IMG/VR virus record: IMGVR_UViG_2974709037_000001 | Span: 6,184-70,183 of that record | Source of the DNA: a virus | Lineage: Duplodnaviria > Caudoviricetes | Reading direction: 5' to 3' (one strand) | Length of the DNA stretch: 64,000 bases | In this document: in pieces, positions 4,793 through 62,773 of the stretch | How the letters are laid out: each line of letters opens with the position of its first letter | Position numbering within the stretch: position 1 is the first letter of the stretch | The notes under the pieces: model-generated | Databases searched by the model: none | Told to the model about the DNA's origin: nothing | What the model saw: the letters and a program-made list of their open reading frames with translations, nothing else | Position numbers and translations under genes: made by a program

Positions 4793-7700
4793 GTGGCTGA
4801 ATTTGTTGCCGCCCAGGCGTCGGTGCTTATCGTGCCGACGCTTGGGAAGGGTGCCAATAGCTTCCACCAGAAGCTAAAGGAGCAACTACAGACGGTCCGT
4901 GAGTCGGTTGACGTAAAGGTCAAGGCTGATACGGCGGCGATGGTTGCCGAGGTTCAGGCCACCAAGGAAATGCTTGAGCGTGACCCAATCAATATCCGGG
5001 TCGAGACGGACAACAACGGAATCAAGGAACTCGTTAAGAACGTCACCGAGGTTCGGCATAAGTACGAGGACTTGAAGGGTGACTTTCGTCGGGGCCTGAC
5101 GCTGAACCTTAAGGTCGTTGGGCTTAGCGCGCTAACGCAGCTCGGGCCTATGTTGGCTTCACTTAACACGTCGATTGTGCAGTTGTCGCAGTCGTCGCTA
5201 TTGCTGCCCGGCATCATGTCGGGTGTCGCGTCGTCTGTGGGCGCGGCGATGGTTGGTTCTCGCGGCCTTACGGATGCGTTCAAGGCCCAGTCAGACGCGT
5301 CTAAGAACGTTGCGGAGGCTGGTAAGCAGCAGCGGGACGCAAACCGGGCTATCCGGGATTCAACGCGCGATCTGAATAACGCGATCCGTGACACTAAGCG
5401 GAACCTTGAAGATTTGAACGCCCAGCTCCGGGACGCGCCGCTGGACGAAGCGGAAGCCATGCTCAACCTGCAAGAGGCTCAGTATGAGGCTTCGCAGAAG
5501 TTCGGCAAGACGGCTTTCCAGCAGCAGCGTGACGCGCTAGGGCTGGCTAAGGCTGAATCGCAGCTTGCAGAGACTCGACGACGGAACGTCCGGCTCGGCC
5601 AGGACGTAGCCGAGGCAAACGCCAAGGGTGTCAACGGCAGTGACGCGGTTGTTGCTGCGCAGGAGCGGCTAACTAAGGCGCTTGAGGACTTGGCGATGCA
5701 GACGGGTCCGATTCGGGCTCTGAACGACGCTATGGCGAAGCTGTCGCCGAATGCGCGCGACTTTGTTGATCGGGTGAGTTCCCTCAAGGGTGTTTGGGAC
5801 GGACTGCGGTCGACGGTTCAGGACCGGCTATTCGACGGCCTAGGCGCTTCTGTGCAGACTTTGGCAGGGCAGGACTTGCCGATCCTCGAACGTGGCTTGA
5901 CGGGCATTGCAGGGGCCATTAACGGCAACCTCAAGACGGCGATGAGTCAGCTAGCGACTGACGAGAACAAGGGATTCCTTGGGCGCATCTTCGGTAACAC
6001 AGAAGAGGCTCAGAACCGGTTCTCTACGGCGCTCAAGCCGCTACTGGATTCGTTCATTCAGCTTAGCGCTGCCGGGTCGGACTATCTGCCGCGACTATCT
6101 AACGCTTTCGGCGATGTGCTTAACCGGTTCGACGGGTTCATTGAGCGCGCGGACGCGGACGGCTCACTGGACAAGTGGATCAACAACGGACTCGACTCGC
6201 TGACGCAGCTTGGTAACTCGCTGATCAACGTCGGGTCGATTATGAACACGATTTCCGAGGCTTTCACTGGTACGGGCGGTAAGGGTCTTCTGGAACTGTT
6301 GGAGACGGGCACTAAGCGTCTCGCGGATTTCCTTAAGGGTGCCGAGGGGCAGCAGAAGCTTAAGCAGTTCTTCTTGGATGCGCGTACGGAGCTGAATAAC
6401 TGGAAGCCTCTGCTTTCGCAGCTTCCGGGGCTGATTAAGAACGTGGCGACGGCGGGTCAGCAGTGGGCGAACATGGTTATGCCGTTCCTCACGACTGCGG
6501 CCAGCTTGCTTAAGGAACACCCTGGTCTGGTTATGGCGATCTTCTCCGCGTACATGACGTGGCGAACGATTAGCCCGATTATCGGGACGATCAACCTTCT
6601 GTTGAGCTCTGAGACGGGCATGGTCGGTGCGGCTAAGAAGGCCGGGCGGGCTGTCGGTAAGGGTGAGGGCCTGACGGGCAAGCTAGGTGTCCTAGCAAGC
6701 ATGGTCGGTTCCGGCGGTGTCGTGATGACTGGCCTATCTCTGGTGGCCGGGTTCCTCTTGAACGAGTGGGTCACGGCGCAGAATGAAGCGGCTGAGGCCG
6801 TTTCGTATCACGCGTCCATGATCAGCCGTCTTAAGGGCGAGATGGACGGGCTCACGGGCTCGCTGACGACGCAGGGCTTGCAGAACAAGCTTGACGCTGC
6901 GCGGCAGTGGACGGACATTCACCAGACGGACGGCAAGCCTAAGGACTTGGTTGCTGCCGCCAACTCGTTTGGTGTGGACCTGCCTACGTTCATGGGGGCC
7001 TTGACTCCGACGAACCAGGCCGCGCGTAACGCGGTGACCGGCAAGGCTCGTCAGACGGTGTTGGACGACCTGAACAAGCAGGGCTTGGAGACGGTTCTAG
7101 GCAAGGACGCCCTGAACGCGTTGAACCTGTACAACCAGAACGCCGCGCCGGATAAGAAGATCACCAACGATGTTCTGGCGGATATCGCTACGGGTGTTAA
7201 CCCTGAGTCTAAGAAGCTGTTTGAGGACGCTAAGAAGTCGAACCTAATTCACTTCAACGAGTCTGATCTGTTGTACGGCTATAACAAGCCGTGGGGCTTC
7301 ATTCCAGGTACCGATCCTTCTGGTAAGGGTCTGTCTCCGGTTGCGCGCGATGCCGCGAATGTTAGTGGGTTCGTCCTGAACGACACGGGTAACGCGTTGC
7401 AGGTCGGCTCGGATATCCGGTCGACGAATGAGGCGCTTTACGGGAAGGCCACGCTTACTCCGGCTGGTCAGCAGATGTTCGGTCCGTTCGGGTCGCCTCA
7501 GGCGTCCTTTGAGAATGGGTCGCACGACGCGGCGGTGCGGGTGGACACGACGCTACAGAACTTGCCTCCGCAGTTCGTTAAGGACGTTGAGTCCAACGGC
7601 GGGCATTTCGAGGAATTGCCTGATGGCGTGATTATCCACATGCGTAAGGACCGTGCGTCTCAGTATGTGACGCCGGGTGCGTATGCGGGTGGCGGTCTGC

Positions 7701-29336: not shown

Positions 29337-29573
29337 CCAGACTCCCGAGAGCGCGGGTTATCGCTCCCGAGGCTACGGACGGTAAGCCGTGGCGGATAAA
29401 TCAAATATAGCTGTCACTTACGAATTAACTCCGTTGTCGGAGGGTCCGTGTTTAGCGTCCGGGCCGCAGAGTGGTTCGCCTGCAAGTAAGCCAGCATTGA
29501 ATACGTGTGTATATCGCACGACGAACCGGTCCCCCCACCCGCTATGGGTGGGGCAGCCGGAGAAGTGCGGGTA

Positions 29574-29682
29574 GCGATATGCGGTTGGTACCTGAGGGTG
29601 ACCGCATGAAAACGCTCTGGCGGGGTCCGTGGCCGTATCTACGGGTCAGAGCATCCAGGTTCGATTCCTGGGTATCGCACCA
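29574..29682 (+). ncRNA. Non-canonical tRNA-like RNA ending in ACCA
   Basis: Acceptor GCGATAT/GTATCGC, T-arm CCAGG-TTCGATT-CCTGG, ACCA end; D and anticodon arms replaced by other hairpins. Confidence 0.7.
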
Positions 29683-33001: not shown

Positions 33002-33415
33002 ATGTCGAAAAAGAGCCTGTTCAAGCAACCAGGTATCGAACAATTGCTTCCCGGTCACGATCTGCCAGTAGGCGTTAAGGTCACCGGTCGCAACATGCAC
33101 GCGGTCACGTTGCTGGTGTCGGCGTCCGGCGAAGCGAACGGTAGCCGGTCTACCGCGACGGCCTTCTTTGAGAGCGACGGTTCGCTGTCGCATGTCAAGT
33201 TGACCGACAACACGGGATCGGTCGACGTAAAGGCCGGTGAGTACCTGGTCCTCAGCGACGACCTTAAGACCGTCGTGGTTGCGGGGACAGAGGACTACGA
33301 GTTCCTCAAGGTGCTGCTCCCGCTGCTCGTCGCGGTGGACACAGCTTTCGACTCACTGGCTGAGAGCTTGGGCGGTCTCGATCTGTCGAACGTGTCGGGC
33401 CTCTTCGGTCTGTGA
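33002..33415 (+). CDS. Hypothetical protein
   Basis: AAGGA RBS. Confidence 0.6.
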   Translation: MSKKSLFKQPGIEQLLPGHDLPVGVKVTGRNMHAVTLLVSASGEANGSRSTATAFFESDGSLSHVKLTDNTGSVDVKAGEYLVLSDDLKTVVVAGTEDYEFLKVLLPLLVAVDTAFDSLAESLGGLDLSNVSGLFGL

Positions 33416-33636
33416 AGCACCTTCTGAGGCACCTTGCCGCGCTCCACTACTTCCGTAGGGAGCGCGGCAGGTTGCCCACCATTAAGGAACTACGCGATGA
33501 CTCTAAGACTTAAAGTCTTCGGTTTTGAGGTTGTCCGGGTGGAGTTGGAAATCCCGGAAGTCGACTCCCGAAGCGTTACCCCGATTCAGCGGGTCGTTAA
33601 AGGCACTAGCAACTGGTGGGTTAAGAGGATGAACGC

Positions 33637-33861
33637 ATGAGCGTTAAGAAGCGCACACCCGAACAAGGCCGAATCGTAGTCACACTCGAATACTCGATGC
33701 CCCGCGTGTACTGGCCTGAGTACGCGGATGGTGGAAAGCGAATCATTACGGATGCGGTCGACTGCCTCAGGCAGAACGTCCAAGACTTCCGTGATGGCGC
33801 GCTTTCCCTTGGAGACCTAATTCAAGGTGCCGACGAAATCCACGTCGAAGCCACTAAGTAA
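33637..33861 (+). CDS. Hypothetical protein
   Basis: GAGGA RBS, coupled. Confidence 0.55.
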   Translation: MSVKKRTPEQGRIVVTLEYSMPRVYWPEYADGGKRIITDAVDCLRQNVQDFRDGALSLGDLIQGADEIHVEATK

Positions 33862-33873
33862 GAGAGGGTAAGC

Positions 33874-35295
33874 ATGACTACCTTTTTGCAGAGCTTGCAG
33901 TCCCAGTTCAACACCACTCGCACGGAGAACGGCGACAAGGCGCACAAGTCGAGCCTTGATCCGGTGGTGGATTACTTCGGCCTGGCGGGCGCTATGCGTG
34001 ACCGCGCGGAGGCATCTGCCGACCTGTTAGAGAAGGCGTTCCGTGTTGACCCACAGGCCGCTGTGCGAACCCTGTTCTATCTGCGGGACGTGCGCGGGGG
34101 CCAGGGCGAGCGTGACGTGTTCCGGGCGGGCCTCAAGCGGCTTCTGAACAAGTACCCCGGTCTGGACTGGTCGGTGCTCAAGCATGTTCCGTTCTACGGG
34201 CGTTGGGACGACCTGTTCTACGACGGTGCGACGGTCACGCCGCCTGTGGCGCGGATTCTCCACAATCAGTGGGCCGCTGACGTGGCGGCTTACGAGCGTG
34301 GCGATCAGGTGTCGCTAATGGCTAAGTGGCTGCCGTCCGACAAGAGCAAGTCGCGCCCGGAGCTGGCTATCGCGGTCCGTCAGGCGCTCGGCCTGACTCA
34401 GCGTGAGTACCGGCAGACCCTTACGGCGCTTAGGGGCCGGATTGGTCTCGTCGAGCACGACATGTCGGAGCGCACGTACGAGCACATCGACTACTCGAAG
34501 CTCCCGGCGCAGGCGCACCGTAAGCACGTTAAGGCGTTCCGGCGCAACGACGGTGAGCGGTACCAGGCGTTCCTTGACGCTGTGCAGCGCGGCGAGGCGA
34601 AGGTGAACACGTCGACTCTGTATCCGTACGAACTGTTCGATCTGTGCCGGTCGGACCCGCAGGCGGCAGACGCGCTGTGGAAGAACCTGCCTGACTACAC
34701 GCAGCCGGGCCAAGACGCGCTTGTCTTGCCGGACGTTTCCGGTTCGATGTATGGCCGTCCCATCTCGGTGTCTGTGTCTTTGGCGCTGTACTTCGCGGAG
34801 CGCAACACTGGTCCGTACCAGGGCTATTTCCTGTCGTTCGACACCACGCCAAAGCTGGTTAAGGTGCCGGAGTCGGGCGACCTGGCGCAGAAGTTGTCGG
34901 CGGTCGAGTACCACACGAACAACTCCGGTTCGACCAACTTGGAGGCCGCATTCGCTGCGATCCTCCGGGCGGGTGTCCAGTCGGGCTCGGTTCCTGGCGT
35001 GCTCTACGTCGTTTCGGACATGCAGTTCAACCAGGCCCTTAATCACGCCGATCTGAGCGTGTTCGAGTCGGCCAAGCTCGCGTTCCGTTCGCACGGCTTG
35101 GAGTTGCCGCACGTGGTGTTCTGGAACGTCAATGCGCGGCATGATCAGTTGCCCGCGACGGCTATGGACGGCAACGTGACTTTGGTTTCCGGGCTGGCTG
35201 CGACGACGTTTGCGCTGGCCGTGGAGGGTAAGTCGCCGCGTGAGCTGGTGGACGACGTAATCAATTCGGAGCGATACGCAAATATCGTTCTGTAA
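33874..35295 (+). CDS. DUF2828-type Ro60/TROVE-like RNA-binding protein with vWA domain
   Basis: TENG, RDVRGGQGER, YGRWDDL, AKWLPS in a helical N-terminus; MIDAS DVSGSM, STN, SDMQF and VFWNV in the vWA domain. Confidence 0.85.
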   Translation: MTTFLQSLQSQFNTTRTENGDKAHKSSLDPVVDYFGLAGAMRDRAEASADLLEKAFRVDPQAAVRTLFYLRDVRGGQGERDVFRAGLKRLLNKYPGLDWSVLKHVPFYGRWDDLFYDGATVTPPVARILHNQWAADVAAYERGDQVSLMAKWLPSDKSKSRPELAIAVRQALGLTQREYRQTLTALRGRIGLVEHDMSERTYEHIDYSKLPAQAHRKHVKAFRRNDGERYQAFLDAVQRGEAKVNTSTLYPYELFDLCRSDPQAADALWKNLPDYTQPGQDALVLPDVSGSMYGRPISVSVSLALYFAERNTGPYQGYFLSFDTTPKLVKVPESGDLAQKLSAVEYHTNNSGSTNLEAAFAAILRAGVQSGSVPGVLYVVSDMQFNQALNHADLSVFESAKLAFRSHGLELPHVVFWNVNARHDQLPATAMDGNVTLVSGLAATTFALAVEGKSPRELVDDVINSERYANIVL

Positions 35296-35338
35296 AACTT
35301 CCATCCTGCCCGGCTAGGCCGGTAAGGTTGGTAACAGG

Positions 35339-35599
35339 TGGACGCGAACAGCAATTAAACTTCTTCTGCTAAAGAAACAAAATGCGTCCAGTACAAAACC
35401 TGTGGACCCCCACAGCAATTACCTACATTCCATGATAAGGACGAGGCGCGGGTTCGATTCCTGCCATATCAGGGCCGTAAGGTGCCTGTTGTAGCTCAGA
35501 GGTAGAGCGCGTATGTAAACCAAGGGGTCCAGTACATAGCGGCTGTGGACACGAACAGCAATTCTAACTCTTTCAAATGGTGAAAATAGAATGTGTCCA
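35339..35599 (+). ncRNA. Array of three Y-RNA-like hairpin units (35339-35390, 35403-35531, 35546-35599)
   Basis: Each reads TGGACnn..ACAGCAATT...nnGTCCAGT with compensatory stem changes; unit 2 contains tRNA T and D arms in permuted order. Confidence 0.8.
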
Positions 35600-35613
35600 G
35601 TTCCGCCGCGTTT

Positions 35614-35654
35614 AGCCCGCCCCGCGCTTTTATGACTGCGGGGCGGGCTTTTTT
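35614..35654 (+). terminator. Intrinsic terminator closing the Ro-like/ncRNA unit
   Basis: AGCCCGCCCCGCG/TGCGGGGCGGGCT stem followed by a T run. Confidence 0.85.
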
Positions 35655-35797
35655 GTGCCCTGAAAGGACTTAAACATGCCAGGACCAATGTCCGCGCCTA
35701 ACGGCAACAAGCTGATCACGGTGAGCGCGGAAGCCCGTAAGAAAGCCGGTCGGACCGGCAAGACGGAGCTGGTGCGCGAGCGGAAAGGCAACAAGAA

Positions 35798-36133
35798 ATG
35801 AAGGCTCTCGTTATCGTGGCGGCGGTCGCGGTCGGCCTGTCCATGTCTGGCTGCGCTACGCAGAACCAGCATTGGGAGACGGGCTGCAAGGTCACGTCGA
35901 AAGACATGATCTATAGCAGCACTGATGGAAACTCGTCACGTAAGAAGCGGATTAGCACGTCGTGCGGCGCTTTCGATGTCGAGGACGCCTGGGAAGCGGG
36001 TTCGTTCAGCTCATACGACCTGTGGTCAAAGCTAGAGGTTGGTAAGACCTACGACCTCAAGGTGGGCGGCATCCGGAACGGGTTCTTCTCGATGTTCCAG
36101 ACCGTCTTGGAGGTTAAAGAATCGAATGGCTAG
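35798..36133 (+). CDS. Lipoprotein
   Basis: Signal peptide with MSGC lipobox. Confidence 0.7.
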   Translation: MKALVIVAAVAVGLSMSGCATQNQHWETGCKVTSKDMIYSSTDGNSSRKKRISTSCGAFDVEDAWEAGSFSSYDLWSKLEVGKTYDLKVGGIRNGFFSMFQTVLEVKESNG

Positions 36134-50282: not shown

Positions 50283-51557
50283 ATGAGCTTAGACGCGCCA
50301 GAAAGCGTTAACTATGCGGCCACTATTGTTCAGGTGCCAGAGCCGCTGTCTGTGGTCGGTCTGGACAACCTGCTGGCCGTCCCGCTGTTCGGGTACCAGG
50401 CGCTCACGCAGAAGGGCATTAAGGCCGGTGACCTCCGGGTGCTGTTCTTCGCTGAGACGCAGCTTGACACCGAGTATGCGCGGGAGAACAACCTGTTTCG
50501 CGAGGCCACGCTGAACCAGGACGCCAGCGAGACCGGATACCTAGAGCCGAACGCCCGTGTCAAGGCGATCCGGCTGCGTAAGAACCAGTCGGACGCGTTG
50601 CTGATGCCGTTGGAGTCGCTGGCCTACACCGGCTACGACGTGTCCGCACTCAAGCCGGGCGACGTGTTCGACAAGCTGAATGGGCACACGATCTGCCGCA
50701 AGTACATCGCCAAGGGTAAGAAGCAAGCCACGCAGGGTCAGCCTAAGGTGCGTAAGCAGGTTGACGAGCGCCTGTTCCCGAAGCATCTGGACACGGAGCA
50801 CCTGTTCCGGAACCTGCACTACTTCCGGAACGCGCGCCGCGTCGTGGTGACTCAGAAGCTTCACGGCACGAGCTGGCGGGGCGGCAATATCCCGGTCAAC
50901 CGGACTAAGGGCCGCGTCGAGCGGTTCATCAACTGGCTGGGCTGGTTTACCCACGACACCGAGTACAAGCACGTCTACGGCTCTCGGAATGTGGTTAAGG
51001 GCCGGTCGGAGAACAACCACTACTACGACACGGACCTTTGGGCCGAATACGGTAAGCAGCTTGAGGGCAAGATTCCCGAAAACTTCATCGTCTACGGCGA
51101 GCTGATCGGGTGGGTGGATAACGACACGCCGATTCAGAAGGGCTACACGTACAACCTGCCTCCGGGCCAGTGCGAGCTTTACGTGTACCGGGTGGCGACG
51201 GTGAACCCGAAGGGTGTCATTGCCGATCTGTCCTGGGAAGGCGTTAAGGACTTCTGCGCGAGCTTGGACCTTAAGACGGTGCCTGAGCTGTGGCTAGGGA
51301 AGATCCATTCTCCGAACAGTGATTCAGACGCGAATCTGACAAACGTGTACGCGGATGAGTTCCTAGATCGGAAGCTGTTTGACGACGGCAATTCGACCGC
51401 GCTTCCGCTGTCTGATCCTAAGACGGTTGACGAGGGTATCTGCGTCCGTATCGAGGGCCAGATTCCGCACGTGTTCAAAGCGAAGTCGCCACTGTTCCTG
51501 CTACATGAAAGCAAGGCGCTAGACGCTGGGGTTGCCGACGTTGAGTCAGCCGCCTGA
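50283..51557 (+). CDS. RNA ligase (Rnl2-like)
   Basis: TQKLHGTS (motif I), YGELIG, DEGICVR, FKAKS. Confidence 0.85.
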   Translation: MSLDAPESVNYAATIVQVPEPLSVVGLDNLLAVPLFGYQALTQKGIKAGDLRVLFFAETQLDTEYARENNLFREATLNQDASETGYLEPNARVKAIRLRKNQSDALLMPLESLAYTGYDVSALKPGDVFDKLNGHTICRKYIAKGKKQATQGQPKVRKQVDERLFPKHLDTEHLFRNLHYFRNARRVVVTQKLHGTSWRGGNIPVNRTKGRVERFINWLGWFTHDTEYKHVYGSRNVVKGRSENNHYYDTDLWAEYGKQLEGKIPENFIVYGELIGWVDNDTPIQKGYTYNLPPGQCELYVYRVATVNPKGVIADLSWEGVKDFCASLDLKTVPELWLGKIHSPNSDSDANLTNVYADEFLDRKLFDDGNSTALPLSDPKTVDEGICVRIEGQIPHVFKAKSPLFLLHESKALDAGVADVESAA

Positions 51558-58477: not shown

Positions 58478-58560
58478 GGTCTCGTGGCGGAATTGGAAGA
58501 CGCGCCAGCCTCAAAAGCTGGTGGGCTAAGCCCGTGTGGGTTCGAGTCCCACCGAGACTA
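58478..58560 (+). tRNA. tRNA-Leu(CAA)
   Basis: Cloverleaf; CCAGC-CTCAAAA-GCTGG; long variable arm. Confidence 0.9.
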
Positions 58561-58561
58561 C

Positions 58562-58633
58562 GCCACCTTAGCTCAGCGGTAGAGCAGCCCCTTCGTAACG
58601 GGCAGGTCAACGGTTCAATTCCGTTAGGTGGCT
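58562..58633 (+). tRNA. tRNA-Thr(CGT)
   Basis: Cloverleaf; anticodon loop TTCGTAA. Confidence 0.9.
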
Positions 58634-58634
58634 C

Positions 58635-58901
58635 GTGAGTATTCAGAAGCCCGCAGTTGGGCGCATTGTGCATTATCAGTCGTATGGAACGCCTAAGGGT
58701 GAGTACCTGCCTGAGCCGCGCGCAGCGGTGATCACCGCGATTCCGGAACTGTTGCCTGAGCAGCCGAATAGCGGCCCTGAGGGGTACGTGCCTTCGGTGA
58801 GCTTGGCGATTCTCAATCCTACGGGCATGTTCTTTAACGAGTATGTGCCTTATGCGGATGAGCCGACGCCGGGCCATTGGAATTGGCCTCCGCGTGTATA
58901 A
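58635..58901 (+). CDS. Conserved phage protein (PAVGRIVHY...W.WPPRV)
   Basis: Recognisable small phage protein motif. Confidence 0.7.
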   Translation: MSIQKPAVGRIVHYQSYGTPKGEYLPEPRAAVITAIPELLPEQPNSGPEGYVPSVSLAILNPTGMFFNEYVPYADEPTPGHWNWPPRV

Positions 58902-58919
58902 CTAAATAAGGAGATTGTT

Positions 58920-59069
58920 GTGGGTTTGATTTCTGATCCGGTTGAGGTTGATCCGATTCAGGTTGGCCGGGATGAGGCTGGTTGGGTGCAGGAACTTCGG
59001 GACCGTGAGGCGTGGCCTAAGCAGGAGGTTCCGGAGCAGGCTAAGACGCCCGCGAAGGTCGGCAACTAG
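58920..59069 (+). CDS. Small hypothetical protein (49 aa)
   Basis: AAGGAG RBS, GTG start. Confidence 0.5.
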   Translation: MGLISDPVEVDPIQVGRDEAGWVQELRDREAWPKQEVPEQAKTPAKVGN

Positions 59070-59132
59070 TTCGTAAGCTCTATAGACATTGCCAAGGCTA
59101 TGCTTTGAGTATCCTCAAACCGGCAATGCAAT

Positions 59133-59206
59133 CTGGCTGTAGTTCAATTTGGGAGAACGCTGGCTTTGGGTGCCAGTGGTTGCAGGTTCAAATCCTGCCA
59201 GCCAGA
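59133..59206 (+). tRNA. tRNA-Pro(TGG)
   Basis: CTGGC-TTTGGGT-GCCAG; T-arm GCAGGTTCAAATCCTGC. Confidence 0.9.
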
Positions 59207-59210
59207 CCTA

Positions 59211-59498
59211 GGGAAGCATCGGACCCGTACAGTCCGGTGTTGTGGTGACAGAGTGTGAAGTTCGTAGCCGGACTTCAATGTGGCGTGAAGCTCCTAAGCG
59301 GGGGCGGATGGAATCGGTTAGCTACCGTAGCGCGCTGGACTGAGCTTGATGGGGACACATAGCCTACGGTTACCCCTGTTTTGTTTGGACTCGGAGGCTG
59401 GAATACCTCCCCACTTTCCCGTTTTCTTAAGGGAGCACCCTTGCCTTGTGGGCTTGCGGTCCCTTCGGTATGCCATCACCGACTGAACGAGGCTGTAT
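59211..59498 (+). ncRNA. Probable structured ncRNA between tRNA-Pro and tRNA-Trp
   Basis: Dense nested hairpins and no credible ORF. Confidence 0.5.
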
Positions 59499-59571
59499 AG
59501 CTCGGTAGCTCAACTGGTAGAGCAGTGGTCTCCAAAGCCACCGGTTGCAGGTTCGACTCCTGTCCGGGTTG
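59499..59571 (+). tRNA. tRNA-Trp(CCA)
   Basis: GTGGT-CTCCAAA-GCCAC. Confidence 0.9.
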
Positions 59572-59572
59572 C

Positions 59573-59654
59573 GCGGCGGTTGGGCTTGTTGGTTGGCCCG
59601 CCTGACTGTAAATCAGGTGTTTCGACATCGGGGGTTCGATTCCCTCTCGCCGTA
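59573..59654 (+). tRNA. tRNA-Tyr(GTA)
   Basis: CCTGA-CTGTAAA-TCAGG; variable arm. Confidence 0.85.
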
Positions 59655-59657
59655 CGT

Positions 59658-59686
59658 TTGACAGACACGTACAGCCCGTGTACTGT
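59658..59686 (+). promoter_or_regulatory. SigA-like promoter overlapped by GTACA-N5-TGTAC palindrome
   Basis: TTGACA-17 nt-TACTGT. Confidence 0.7.
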
Positions 59687-59725
59687 GATTGAAGGTTGAT
59701 CGCAACGACAGGGAGTTGGGTAGCA

Positions 59726-59962
59726 ATGTCTACGTTCACAATTACCGCGACCATCGTGTTTGAGGTCGAGGCAGATAGCAGCGAGGACGCAGCCGTTAAG
59801 GCTTTCGCGGGTATCGAGTTCCACGCTGAGGATCACAGGCCGGAGAATATTCAGGTCTGGGACTCTGAGCCTGGGCACTGGTTTGCCGACCGGTACACGT
59901 ACGCCAATCCGCCCGTACTCATCGAGTACAAGTCGAACGTGCCTGCCAGCGCTGTGACGTAA
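59726..59962 (+). CDS. Hypothetical protein
   Basis: GGGAG RBS downstream of the promoter. Confidence 0.6.
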   Translation: MSTFTITATIVFEVEADSSEDAAVKAFAGIEFHAEDHRPENIQVWDSEPGHWFADRYTYANPPVLIEYKSNVPASAVT

Positions 59963-59975
59963 GGCAGATTCATCC

Positions 59976-60049
59976 GGAACCGTAGCCCAATTGGCAGAGG
60001 CAATAGGCTTAGACCCTATCCAGTGTGCGTTCGAGTCGCACCGGTTCTA
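59976..60049 (+). tRNA. tRNA-Leu(TAG), short variable loop
   Basis: ATAGG-CTTAGAC-CCTAT. Confidence 0.85.
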
Positions 60050-60120
60050 CGCTAAGTAGCTTAATGGTAAAGCGCCCGGTTGTGGTCCGGGTGATTCCGG
60101 TTCGACTCCGGGCTTAAGCC
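60050..60120 (+). tRNA. tRNA-His(GTG), irregular acceptor stem
   Basis: CCCGG-TTGTGGT-CCGGG. Confidence 0.75.
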
Positions 60121-60122
60121 AC

Positions 60123-60195
60123 GCGCGGGTAGCTCAGTGGTTAGAGCGCTGCTCTGATAAGGCAGGGGTCCGTGGTTCAAATCCACGTTCGCGCA
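60123..60195 (+). tRNA. tRNA-Ile(GAT)
   Basis: CTGCT-CTGATAA-GGCAG. Confidence 0.9.
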
Positions 60196-60259
60196 CGTAT
60201 CACACCTTGTTTAGTTTTGTCAAACAACCAAACGGGCCGAAATGGCATTTTGGTTGTAT

Positions 60260-60331
60260 TGCCTGGTCTTCTAATTGGCAGGATGCCGGAATCTGACTCC
60301 GGTGGTTGAGGTTCGAGTCCTTGCCGGGCAG
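60260..60331 (+). tRNA. tRNA-Gln(CTG)
   Basis: CCGGA-ATCTGAC-TCCGG. Confidence 0.8.
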
Positions 60332-60332
60332 C

Positions 60333-60406
60333 GTGCTAGTAACCCATGTTGGCCGGGTACCTGCCTTCCAAGCAGGGTTTCGCGGGTTCGATTCCTGTCT
60401 AGCACA
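60333..60406 (+). tRNA. tRNA-Gly(TCC)
   Basis: CCTGC-CTTCCAA-GCAGG. Confidence 0.85.
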
Positions 60407-60455
60407 CACTGCCCCCTTCTAAGCCTCTCAGCGATGCTCAAATGGGAGGGGCCTT

Positions 60456-60528
60456 GCCTCGTTAGCTCAGTTGGTAGAGCAGCGCACTCTTAATGCGCGG
60501 GTCGGCGGTTCGAGTCCGTCACGGGGTA
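60456..60528 (+). tRNA. tRNA-Lys(CTT)
   Basis: GCGCA-CTCTTAA-TGCGC. Confidence 0.92.
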
Positions 60529-60529
60529 C

Positions 60530-60700
60530 GTGAATGATCAACGTTGGATCGGTGGTATCGACACCGGTAAGCCTTGTGTGGGCTGTGGTAATCCGCCCGA
60601 TAGGGGTTATGCGTGGAGCTTTTACTGCTCACTGCATGGTGGTTCGTGTGGAGAGTGCAAGCGTATATCGGGCGTGATCGCGTGCCCAATTGTTCATTGA
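60530..60700 (+). CDS. Small Cys-rich protein (56 aa)
   Basis: GTG start; CVGC, CSLH and CGEC motifs. Confidence 0.4.
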   Translation: MNDQRWIGGIDTGKPCVGCGNPPDRGYAWSFYCSLHGGSCGECKRISGVIACPIVH

Positions 60701-60735
60701 TTTAACACACACGTATTCGATGCTGGCTTACGTCA

Positions 60736-60824
60736 GGAAAGTAAAGCAGGCCAATAGGGTGCCGACCGGTCTTGAAAACCGGGTAGCCGTCATGGAGCTT
60801 GGGGTGCGAGTCCTCTGCTTTCCG
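60736..60824 (+). tRNA. tRNA-Ser(TGA), atypical D arm and T loop
   Basis: GGAAAGT/GCTTTCC acceptor; CCGGT-CTTGAAA-ACCGG; T loop TGCGAGT. Confidence 0.7.
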
Positions 60825-60830
60825 CTTTCA

Positions 60831-60902
60831 GGGGTTATAGCTTAGTTGGTAAAGCACCGGTCTTGCACACCGGAGTCCGGGGTTCGATTCCCCGTTTCTC
60901 CA
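60831..60902 (+). tRNA. tRNA-Ala(TGC)
   Basis: G3:U70 pair; CCGGT-CTTGCAC-ACCGG; two U-U mismatches in the acceptor stem. Confidence 0.8.
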
Positions 60903-60916
60903 CTTAAGGGGGTTAA

Positions 60917-61606
60917 GTGTCTGAGGTTAAGAGCCTTTACGGCACGCGTACCTCGAAATACTGGGAGGCCGCTCCGGCGAAGATGGACGCGCTGAATCTG
61001 CGCATGATCTTCCCGTCGAGCAATCGTTATGGCTTCCCGGACTTGGCGCTGTGTGATTGGGTGCCGGACTGCTTGGGTGCGTGGCATCTGCCGCGTCAGC
61101 GGGATCGTGCTGCGGCTAATAACGGCGCTGTGCATTTCTTTTTGGATGACTACCGCTTTGAGACTGCGTTTAGTAGCCCTGAGAGGACCGTGGGCCGAGT
61201 TTTGGCGGTCGGTGGGGCACTGACACCCGATTTCAGTTTGTGGCGTGATATGCCGCGTGCTGGGCAGCTTTGGAATGTGTACCGGTCGCGTTGGTGCGGG
61301 GCGTTCTGGCAGGGCCAGGGCGTGAGGGTCATTCCTACGGCCTGCTGGGCTCGCTCGGACACGTTCGACTTCTGTTTCGACGGGCTCCCGGAGGGCGGGC
61401 CGGTGGCGGTCTCAGCGCTCGGTGTGCGGGCGAATGGTGAGGATCGCGGCGTGTTCCGGGACGGCCTGGCTGAGTTGGTGGCTCGTGTGCGGCCTTCGCG
61501 CATCTTGAGCTATGGACGGCTGGTGCATGTCGACGGGCTTGATCTGCCGCCGGTTCGTGAGTTTCCGACCTTTTGGGATGAGCGTCGTAAGGCGGTTGAG
61601 GCTTAA
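60917..61606 (+). CDS. DUF4417-family protein
   Basis: VHFFLDDYRFE, LTPDFSL, NVYRSRW.G, VIPT, FCFDGLP. Confidence 0.85.
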   Translation: MSEVKSLYGTRTSKYWEAAPAKMDALNLRMIFPSSNRYGFPDLALCDWVPDCLGAWHLPRQRDRAAANNGAVHFFLDDYRFETAFSSPERTVGRVLAVGGALTPDFSLWRDMPRAGQLWNVYRSRWCGAFWQGQGVRVIPTACWARSDTFDFCFDGLPEGGPVAVSALGVRANGEDRGVFRDGLAELVARVRPSRILSYGRLVHVDGLDLPPVREFPTFWDERRKAVEA

Positions 61607-61616
61607 GGGGGTTCTG

Positions 61617-62009
61617 GTGGGCGGTCGCGGTGGTGGTGGCGGTGGCCCGGCTAGTTCCCGGTCGGGCATGGTGAGGTTGTATCACCGGACGCGGGATTGG
61701 GAAGACGCTAAGGCCATCGTTGAGGGTGGTTTCAGTCCGACGTACACCAAGGGCAATAAGGCTACTGCTGATGACTGGTATAAGGAGTCTCAGGGCCAGT
61801 ACGGGTTCTTCACGAAGCGTGTGAGTGGTCAGGATGGTTATGGCCGTCATGTGGTGGCTGTGGACGTGCCTAAGAGTGCTGTTGAGCGTGATCCGTGGTC
61901 GGGGCATGTGCGGGTGAAGACTGAGCATCTTAAGGGTGCTCAGTTTCGGCATCATGCGGGTATGGATCACGAGTATTACGAAGCTAAGCGGCGTAAGAAG
62001 AAAAAGTAA
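61617..62009 (+). CDS. MGGRG-start protein with possible ADP-ribosyltransferase fold
   Basis: GGRGGGGG leader; RLYHRT...GGF...YGFFT...YG. Confidence 0.5.
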   Translation: MGGRGGGGGGPASSRSGMVRLYHRTRDWEDAKAIVEGGFSPTYTKGNKATADDWYKESQGQYGFFTKRVSGQDGYGRHVVAVDVPKSAVERDPWSGHVRVKTEHLKGAQFRHHAGMDHEYYEAKRRKKKK

Positions 62010-62047
62010 AAGCCCCACCCGGCTATGTGCGCGGGTAGGGCTTTTTT
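62008..62047. terminator. Bidirectional terminator between convergent genes
   Basis: AAAAGCCC...GGGCTTTTTT. Confidence 0.75.
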
Positions 62048-62059
62048 CGGAAGAGCGTG

Positions 62060-62341
62060 TTACGGCATGGGAGCGTTCGAGAACGCCTTCTCCCAGCTGC
62101 CACCGATGCCGCCAATGCCGGTGGTGCCGCTGTCTTTGCCGGGCCAGATTTTCTCCCAGATGCCGCCGTTTACGTGTTTGACGGCGCGTTCCCATGCTCC
62201 GGCGAATGGGTTGTTAATGGTGGGCGTTTTGACGGTGCAGGTGCCGGAGCAGCTTACGGTGCCGGGTTGGGCGTTGGCTGCGGGGGCGGCGGCGAGGCTG
62301 ATGGCTGCGGCTGCCATGATGGCTGCGGCGATTTTGTTCAT
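62060..62341 (-). CDS. Small secreted protein
   Basis: MNKIAAAIMAAAAISLAAAPAANA signal peptide; GGAAAGG RBS. Confidence 0.7.
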   Translation of the reverse strand: MNKIAAAIMAAAAISLAAAPAANAQPGTVSCSGTCTVKTPTINNPFAGAWERAVKHVNGGIWEKIWPGKDSGTTGIGGIGGSWEKAFSNAPMP

Positions 62342-62586
62342 GTTGTGTACCTTTCCTGGTTGGGTACAGCTAGTGTACCCGGTACAGGGCATGTACGCAA
62401 CTGTTTGTGTTTTGTAGTTGCTTAGGTGCGCCACTCGCTCATTCTTCCTCCATCCACACGTTAGCGTCGGGCAGGATGCCTTTAAGGTTTTTGACGAGAC
62501 TGCTTGCTTGTGCGTGGTTGAGTCCGTCGAGGACGAACCTGTCGTCGTCTATTGCGTCTTTCATCCAAACAACCCACATGCGTTAT

Positions 62587-62657
62587 TCCTCTGTCGTTCA
62601 ATGGCAGGACGGCTGACTGTTGATCAGCTTATGGTGGTTCGAGTCCATCCAGGGGAG
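62587..62657 (+). tRNA. tRNA-Asn(GTT)
   Basis: GCTGA-CTGTTGA-TCAGC. Confidence 0.85.
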
Positions 62658-62773
62658 CTTATTGGCGATAAATCGTCACCGTGGCCGTAAGGCCGTGCTT
62701 CTCGATTTCGTGCTGTACCGCTTCGGCGGCTAGTTCCCTTATGAAGGTCTTAGCGGTGAGCGGGCCGACTAGC

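Follow-up and report, generated by a model that had tools for sequence, protein, structure and literature searches.

A DUF2828 protein with a predicted Ro60-like fold and its ACAGCAA-handle RNAs: a probable second kind of Ro/Y-RNA particle in phages and bacteria

Introduction

Ro60, a lupus autoantigen, forms together with Y RNAs a classic RNA-surveillance particle. The Salmonella rsr-yrlBA-rtcBA operon places rtcB beside rsr. YrlA RNAs were described in 22 phages by Chen et al. 2014 (PMC4201824), who gathered their genomes by TROVE annotation and proposed the motif GNCGAA(N)G as the contact with Ro60; according to the same paper, the host Mycobacterium smegmatis has a canonical Rsr/YrlA of its own. 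Here we analyze a locus in the virus record IMGVR_UViG_2974709037_000001 (positions 6,184 to 70,183; these 64,000 nucleotides, hereafter the window, make up most of the 70-kb record), in which the gene for a DUF2828 protein is followed by an array of three RNA units that share a closing stem and the motif ACAGCAA, together referred to as the handle. We consider it likely that the locus encodes a Ro/Y-like ribonucleoprotein: the DUF2828 protein would bind the ACAGCAA handle, and the RNAs would present interchangeable modules that are for the most part tRNA-like. It would probably be a second, so far uncatalogued kind of Ro/Y-RNA particle.

Results

The gene and its three RNA units

The closest deposited relatives of the record are cultivable phages of Mycobacterium smegmatis: the 91 phage records that match it all belong to Mycobacterium phages, the best being Douge, Chaser and DyoEdafos at 88-89% identity. 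The gene and the RNA units are located as follows, with positions counted in the window.

33874-35295, plus strand: DUF2828+DUF7788 gene, an open reading frame (ORF) of 473 aa, with TAA stop at 35293-35295.
35339-35391, plus strand: unit 1, TGGACGC-GA-ACAGCAATT...GCGTCCA; stem 35339-35345 / 35384-35390, ACAGCAA 35348-35354, G at 35391; the module is a small hairpin, TTCTT / CTGCTA / AAGAA.
35403-35532, plus strand: unit 2, TGGACCCC-C-ACAGCAATT...GGGGTCCA; stem 35403-35410 / 35524-35531, ACAGCAA 35412-35418; the body is tRNA-like.
35546-35600, plus strand: unit 3, TGGACAC-GA-ACAGCAATT...GTGTCCA; stem 35546-35552 / 35593-35599, ACAGCAA 35555-35561; the module is two stacked helices, ATTCTA/TAGAAT and TTTCA/TGAAA, with loop AATGG.

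Every unit consists of a 7-8 bp closing stem, then 1-2 nt, then ACAGCAATT, with GT after the 3' strand. The sixth stem pair is G-C, C-G and A-U in units 1, 2 and 3, respectively, with pairing maintained. The first unit begins 43 nt past the stop codon, where the original prediction, made from the letters of this DNA alone, had placed it at about 45 nt. The features named in that prediction, namely three units with covarying stems, an invariant ACAGCAA, GT after each unit and a terminator behind the array, agree with the present reading of the sequence.

The interior helices predicted for units 1 and 3 fared differently. The helices ATTCTA/TAGAAT and TTTCA/TGAAA constitute the minimum-free-energy fold of unit 3, whereas the TTCTT/AAGAA hairpin of unit 1 is present, but only as an alternative to the minimum-free-energy fold of that unit. 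The module stem of unit 1 is kept in relatives by compensatory change (TTCTT/AAGAA versus TGTT/AACA). The TTTCA-loop-TGAAA module of unit 3 recurs at distant loci, L002, L015, L020, L022, L028 and L044 among them; metagenomic phages that are A+T-rich and no more than 40-45% identical in the protein carry it.

Unit 2 carries the tRNA-like domain that had been predicted for it. Its body comprises an inner, enclosing helix (35424-35428 / 35513-35517), a small hairpin (35429-35441) with the 7-nt loop AUGAUAA followed by a 5-nt stretch resembling a variable loop, a T-arm (35448-35464), a closed acceptor-like hairpin (35466-35492) and a D-arm (35494-35508). This follows the order of the YrlA tRNA-like domain (T-arm, closed acceptor-like hairpin, D-arm, enclosing stem), and the small hairpin may be an anticodon arm or the 'V' arm of YrlA, the topology being identical. 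Alignment of unit 2 from 16 relatives showed that the T-stem and the handle stem covary, both strands having changed, and that the T-loop and D-arm are conserved. In most relatives the second base of the 7-nt loop is U and bases 6-7 are AA, with GAU, GGU, GUU or AGU in the middle. The T and D arms match positions 30-81 of the Rfam YrlA model at 22.5 bits (gathering score 69); ordinary tRNA pairs of the same phage reach an equal score, and the YrlA match of unit 2 therefore proves nothing alone. ARAGORN called no tRNA at unit 2, and in the relative Zakai a tRNA-Thr is annotated under the unit 2 region.

A conserved RNA family beside DUF2828 genes

Handles were analyzed in a viral set of 44 loci encoding relatives of the protein at 29-91% identity. 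Where protein identity is 39% or more, nearly every locus has ACAGCAA beside the gene on the gene strand; on the opposite strand the motif is very rare. The stem test called for a perfect 7-bp stem with at most one G-U pair, whose 5' strand ends exactly two nt before the motif. Such a fixed-register stem was found at 94 of 124 gene-strand ACAGCAA sites (45 loci), as against 1170 of 18000 random positions (6.5%) and 0 of 6 opposite-strand sites, and the 3' strand is followed by G in 76 of 76 distinct units. Pair 1 of the stem occurs as U-A, A-U and G-C, pair 2 as G-C, A-U and C-G, pair 4 as A-U, G-C and U-A, and at pair 6 each of the four Watson-Crick combinations is seen; the third, fifth and seventh pairs are almost invariably G-C, C-G and C-G, and the linker ahead of ACAGCAA varies freely across the family. 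When 58 short viral units were aligned, all seven pairs showed changes on both sides (111 cells), giving a covariation score of 0.735; shuffles scored 0.20 and slid partners no more than 0.13.

The handle was then built into a covariance model, R1, and the entire window was searched with it, taking both strands and switching filters off. Three significant matches were obtained, which are the three units: unit 3 at 57 bits (E 6e-12), unit 1 at 53.2 bits (E 5e-11) and unit 2 at 23.8 bits (E 0.0012). The next-best match in the window reached 12.1 bits (E 1.1), and no match was found at 29337-29682 or 59211-59498. Searched across the whole phage record, R1 gave two matches at E ≤ 1, units 1 and 3. 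No R1 handle was found at the giant-virus-like loci L037-L040, L042 and L043 (534-544 aa; one labelled GVMAG), and a relaxed script run on L037, L038, L040 and L042 found none either.

Bacterial loci, which had not been used in building R1, were taken from a prokaryote scan with one genome per species. The scan returned 435 stretches with relatives of the protein, and the best 80 loci were used, from Bacillota, Synergistota, Chloroflexota, spirochaetes, Pseudomonadota, Actinomycetota, Saccharibacteria and others. R1 gave 99 matches at E ≤ 0.1 in 57 of these 80 loci, every one on the gene strand (99/99) and mostly within 400 nt ahead of the start codon. Of the 23 loci without an R1 match, about 12 gave gene-strand handle variants, with one change in the motif, in the relaxed script; neither method found a handle in bacterial loci including L061, L067, L070, L081, L117, L126, L129 and L132, several of which are short contigs. 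Of the best 60 bacterial matches, 56 have the exact ACAGCAA and all 60 a G behind the stem, and double changes occur at 7/7 pairs (73 cells; score 0.532 versus 0.177 shuffled).

The link to the gene also holds at genome scale. Five complete or draft bacterial genomes of 2.6-4.2 Mb each gave six R1 matches at E ≤ 0.01, and each of the six is upstream of a DUF2828 gene by no more than about 720 nt. One bacterial family was sampled with 61 genomes, four of which (G004, G009, G022 and G063) encode DUF2828. R1 matched in exactly these four, on the same contig and strand and 75-1550 nt upstream of the gene, and in none of the other 57. The handle RNAs are one conserved family with a covarying stem, tied to DUF2828 genes and to no others in the genomes searched. 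The proposal that the units form one RNA family is supported by the covariance model and by covariation in both the viral and the bacterial set, and the proposed enrichment of the motif beside DUF2828 homologues is borne out by the strand count and by the 4/4 versus 0/57 distribution.

Most bacterial units lie in the 5' leader, a placement that would also suit a cis-acting regulatory element. The handles could accordingly be elements of the DUF2828 mRNA itself, bound by its own protein product or by another factor in the manner of ribosomal-protein leaders and controlling its translation, stability or processing, with no free particle formed. Consistent with this, most bacterial units immediately precede the gene and share its strand, often with 18-30 nt left to the start codon (L128, L072, L110, L056 and L093, for example), and a scan of 33400-35900 in the window found no promoter-like site between the gene and the RNA array. 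We regard this explanation as unlikely. Several copies per locus, distinct conserved modules and tRNA-like bodies of about 100 nt exceed what an operator needs, the array stands after the stop codon in the phage and its relatives, and some units are 0.5-1.4 kb away from the gene (L031, L044, L054, L100). Units also abut tRNA genes whose processing would release them, and canonical Y RNAs hold the same positions beside Ro60 genes (PMC4201824; Yrl1/2 of phiLo, PMC12135203).

Predicted structure of the DUF2828 protein

The protein matches Pfam DUF2828 (E 3.5e-30, 105.6 bits; cut-off 29) and DUF7788 (E 7.9e-27, 94.4 bits; cut-off 27.1), as well as the PHROGs family phrog_850, 'RNA-binding protein' (E 2.4e-153), and GenBank relatives label the gene 'Ro-like RNA binding protein'. 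TROVE gave no match at E ≤ 1, either for the protein or in a six-frame search of the whole phage genome; the control genomes of D. radiodurans and B. thetaiotaomicron do match it. The vWA_Ro60 Pfam family (PF25045) gave no match to the protein, which has DUF7788 instead, plus weak matches to VWA_CoxE and VWA_2. A 21-sequence profile searched against PDB sequences found no Ro60 and weak vWA matches only.

An AlphaFold2 model was built on the 21-sequence alignment, with a predicted local distance difference test (pLDDT) score of 86 and a predicted template modeling (pTM) score of 0.86. Foldseek ranks 1-13 against the PDB are all Ro60 (1yvr, E 1.3e-8). Comparison of the predicted model by VIA-align gave 2i91_A as the best match, with Z 22.1 and a root-mean-square deviation of 3.8 Å over 402 of 473 residues, spanning 9-453. 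It was followed by 1yvp (Z 21.8), Ro60 of Thermus phage phiLo (Z 14-15) and Deinococcus Rsr (Z 13.5); the first 10 ranks are all Ro60, and the next class, vWA-only domains, reached Z 8.4. Residues D287, S289, S291, T354 and D382 form a DxSxS...T...D pattern that is invariant across the 21 sequences. We take this metal-site pattern to be a MIDAS.

The overall architecture predicted by the model is that of Ro60, with a helical ring (DUF2828) and a vWA-type domain with a metal site (DUF7788). The protein is outside the TROVE family by sequence definition and Ro60-like in its predicted structure, which agrees with the divergent helical and vWA protein of the original prediction. The family is large, with 5660 representatives (50% identity) at E ≤ 1e-3 and 2112 at E ≤ 1e-30.

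Comparison with a canonical phage Ro60 locus

Rfam 15 contains no family matching units 1 and 3, and unit 2 gave the sub-threshold YrlA match only, so that no strong match removes the novelty. Matches to mir-4865, snoZ185 and tmRNA, at E 0.04-7.6, were set aside as chance or a partial T-arm. Rfam searches on 10 bacterial loci returned nothing overlapping the handle matches. No paper describing an ACAGCAA handle, or any RNA that partners DUF2828 proteins, turned up in a full-text literature search, which covered Chen et al. 2014 apart from its supplementary phage list.

As a canonical control we used cluster C phage Bxz1, with a TROVE + vWA_Ro60 locus. Its gp220 is a canonical phage Ro60 (TROVE 9.4e-50, vWA_Ro60 4.3e-54), and hhalign of the profile of the present protein against it aligned the vWA half only (probability 82%, E 1e-5, 156 columns). 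A YrlA-like RNA lies upstream of the Bxz1 Ro60 gene (L137 29980-30056) and scores 32.5 bits, below the gathering score of 69, which indicates that the Rfam threshold misses phage YrlA RNAs of the kind described by Chen et al. 2014. A long terminal stem and a GCCGAGAG-type motif, of the GNCGAA(N)G kind that Chen et al. 2014 put forward for the Ro60 contact, characterize this RNA, from which ACAGCAA is absent. R1 found no handle in 49 kb around the Bxz1 Ro60 gene (best 11.1 bits, E 1.5). Conversely, GNCGAA(N)G is absent near the 5' end of unit 2, where the region reads TGGACCCC-C-ACAGCAATT. The blank R1 search at Bxz1 and the contrast in motifs indicate two protein types with two different RNA handles, and the stem differs from that of canonical Y RNAs as originally stated.

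These data also bear on whether the locus is simply the known mycobacteriophage Ro60/YrlA system, with unit 2 as YrlA and units 1 and 3 as YrlB-like RNAs, so that annotation alone would be at stake. The 'Ro-like RNA binding protein' label of relatives in GenBank and the YrlA module order of unit 2 would fit, and the supplementary list of 22 phages in Chen et al. 2014 (PMC4201824) may include cluster L phages. That study, however, gathered its genomes by TROVE annotation, and the present protein matches neither TROVE nor vWA_Ro60. With ACAGCAA in place of GNCGAA(N)G, a YrlA score no higher than that of ordinary tRNA pairs, R1 blank at the canonical locus and the 376-nt gap unannotated in Douge, we judge this explanation very improbable.

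Modules, transcripts and tRNA genes

Among the modules carried by bacterial handles are bare T-arm look-alikes, larger bodies and hairpins whose loops measure 7 nt. Of 60 bacterial handle RNAs, 9 contain a T-loop-like motif, a frequency about 8 times that of the background. Together with the comparison of units, this count upholds the proposal that the modules are interchangeable and often parts of tRNA.

Handle RNAs abut tRNA genes at an Enterococcus and a Sarcina locus (L097 2224-2359 and L107 2262-2445). At L097 the tRNA ends at 2293 and the unit begins at 2294; at L107 the unit ends at 2369 and the tRNA begins at 2374. With this arrangement, the cuts made in ordinary tRNA end-processing would fall beside the handle. 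On a Saccharibacteria-binned contig (L077, 153-2412), which is probably a phage, the DUF2828 gene has over 20 tRNA genes just upstream.

One metatranscriptome run, sharing 10% of the words, was matched in public RNA data. It contains a 279-nt contig at a depth of 26.7 that covers 35346-35416 and 35524-35625, with the 107 nt between these flanks replaced by 106 other letters, and it comes from a relative with another unit-2 body. The contig covers the array from unit 1 to the terminator, with no coding sequence from 34900 on. Both the contig, as a weak hint, and the tRNA abutment hint at discrete RNAs. One extra A in the unit 1 loop (35365-35370) gives the contig a 7-nt loop there. The tRNA mimic of unit 2 (35417-35523) is swapped in the contig for a different 106-nt body between near-identical flanks, which indicates module swapping among very close relatives.

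Flanking signals

The next gene starts at 35677, leaving 381 nt from the stop codon, and these carry no annotated feature in Douge. Two further structures flank the units.

35301-35331, plus strand: post-stop hairpin preceding the RNA array; fold -16.3 kcal/mol, z -2.0.
35614-35655, plus strand: intrinsic terminator; G+C-rich stem of 13 bp, 35614-35626 / 35637-35649, and U6 at 35650-35655.

The post-stop hairpin is kept in position in 6 cluster L relatives, where alignment shows changed sequence with pairing retained. It has no U-run and is therefore not a terminator; it may be a processing site, or protect or stabilize the 3' end of the mRNA. Folding of the terminator gave -32.8 kcal/mol (z -4.4), equaled by 0 of 200 shuffles, and its position is kept in relatives with compensatory changes. 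The terminator call rests on this fold, as the terminator rule of the promoter scan (loop of at most 8 nt) missed it. No sigma-70-like promoter was found in the scan of 33400-35900. Weak Rfam matches to Betaproteobacteria toxic sRNA and anti-hemB cover the terminator hairpin only and were rejected.

Neighboring genes

RtcB is the commonest nearest neighbor in the bacterial loci (9 of 136 ORFs), and other neighbors include WYL (4), SmpB (3), RNA_lig_T4_1 (2), AAA_33 kinase (2) and RlaP (1). RtcB was not found in the phage genome. The phage encodes an RNA ligase of the Rnl2 type (Pfam RNA_ligase PF09414, 47.3 bits, window 50838-51482, within a 424-aa open frame), and Douge, 89% identical, is annotated with a polynucleotide kinase, which together suggest a T4-like RNA-repair pair. 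Thirteen tRNA genes are clustered at 58478-62658 (Leu, Thr, Pro, Trp, Tyr, Leu, His, Ile, Gln, Gly, Lys, Ala, Asn). Overproduction of gp53, the LeBron homologue, is described as toxic to M. smegmatis (PMC13148394). This context fits, without proving, a particle in RNA repair, RNA surveillance or the phage-host contest over tRNA.

The frequency of RtcB and RNA-repair genes nearby raises a further explanation, that the handle is read by another factor, such as a host or phage nuclease, a tRNA-modifying enzyme or a ligase, and not by the DUF2828 protein, to which it would be linked through one common pathway. The modules resemble parts of tRNA known to many enzymes, and binding of the handle by the DUF2828 protein is itself something that we infer. 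It is with DUF2828, however, that the handle co-occurs, both in the four of 61 family genomes and in the whole-genome matches, all of which adjoin the gene, and the phage carries its array without RtcB. The handle is the sole constant part of the RNAs and DUF2828 the sole constant protein neighbor, and the fold predicted for that protein is the fold of a known stem-binding RNA chaperone. An unrelated reader of the handle therefore appears improbable.

Discussion

In the Ro/Y-like particle that we favor, the gene and the three RNAs would be co-transcribed to the terminator at 35614-35655, and cleavage of the transcript would yield three small RNAs, about 55, 130 and 57 nt long. All of them would retain the constant handle, consisting of the 7-bp stem, two free nt, single-stranded ACAGCAA and the invariant G after the 3' strand, and this handle would be recognized by the DUF2828 protein as Ro60 recognizes the conserved stem of Y RNAs. 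The variable modules, two small hairpins and one YrlA-like tRNA mimic, may present tRNA-like surfaces to tRNA-binding, RNA-repair or RNA-decay factors. Alternatively, they may act as decoys for tRNA-targeting host nucleases during infection.

Several observations weigh against this proposal. The contact between protein and handle is deduced from genomic linkage. The helical half of the protein has no sequence similarity to TROVE by Pfam, six-frame, PDB profile or hhalign searches, so that common descent of the ring rests on the predicted fold. Most bacterial units are in the 5' leader and end 18-30 nt before the start codon, and 6 of the 44 viral loci, at about 29% protein identity, are without a handle. 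The units were chosen by pairing, which makes a figure of 100% paired circular, and the informative parts are therefore the covariation counts and the random-position control. The sole RNA-library record is an assembled contig that carries no information on ends or strand and may reflect DNA carry-over, and the link to RtcB is limited to the 9 of 136 neighboring ORFs.

The DUF2828 family spans many bacterial phyla and many phages. With tRNA look-alike modules and with RtcB or RNA ligases nearby, the RNAs can be linked to the fight between phage and host over the cutting and mending of tRNA. Mycobacteriophages of cluster L, for which M. smegmatis serves as host and engineering is routine, offer an experimentally convenient case, and with the host's own Rsr/YrlA at hand, the independence of the particle and its binding specificity could be compared directly. 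The 300-nt RNA array that is unannotated in Douge can also be added, correcting the annotation.

Comparison with known systems

A coliphage system and an amoebal one resemble parts of the locus by description. Bas63 gp130 is a coliphage protein that is structurally Ro60-like and encoded beside tRNA genes; its authors propose tRNA-like Y RNA partners and report that it counters the ppl defence system (preprint 10.1101/2024.10.10.617714). Its likeness to the present protein lies in the described Ro60-like structure, and the passages on gp130 mention no RNA motif. The dictyostelid Class I RNAs (Kjellin et al. 2021, PMC7919456) are about 60 nt long, with a short covarying stem of 6 bp between the 5' and 3' ends, a largely unpaired conserved 11-nt motif beside the 5' strand, a variable remainder and a conserved 3' tail. 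The motif has T at position 3, C at 6 and 9, and A at 10 and 11; the authors of that paper found no such RNAs outside Dictyostelia, and the one direct binder reported is the RRM protein Rnp1A. Their design of stem, motif and tail matches that of the handle RNAs as far as the description goes. The Class I motif presumably ends in the same seven letters as the handle, with which the letters given above are consistent, and its spacing from the stem would differ by about 3 nt.

The papers naming DUF2828 concern plants and a tardigrade genome, which places the family in eukaryotes as well. It is possible, though doubtful, that the stem and ACAGCAA form the universal adaptor of an ancient Ro-like particle spanning phages, bacteria, giant viruses and eukaryotes, with DUF2828 as the dedicated binder, the Class I RNAs as its eukaryotic branch, and the tRNA parts in phages (anticodon-like hairpins, T-arms and whole sealed tRNA bodies) serving as decoys or baits in the contest over tRNA cutting and repair, independently of the host Rsr/YrlA.

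The closest parallel remains Ro60 with its Y RNAs. The DUF2828 protein shares with Ro60 a predicted helical-repeat ring joined to a vWA domain with a metal site (Z 22), and RtcB is a neighbor in bacteria in both cases. Like Y RNAs, the handle RNAs are modular, with a conserved terminal stem and a variable module, and one RNA per locus has a tRNA-like domain; several small RNAs lie on the same strand beside the gene, as in Ro60/YrlA-YrlB (RF02553, PMC4201824) and phiLo Yrl1/Yrl2 (PMC12135203). The differences concern both partners. The protein is of the DUF2828/DUF7788 type, without TROVE (PF05731) or vWA_Ro60, and the RNA handle is a 7-bp stem followed by NN, ACAGCAA and a 3' G rather than GNCGAA(N)G or GGUCCGA; it is covered by no Rfam family and is absent from the Bxz1 locus, where the YrlA-like RNA stands. 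The evidence points to a second branch beside Ro60 and its Y RNAs, unrelated to them in sequence and equipped with an RNA handle of its own.

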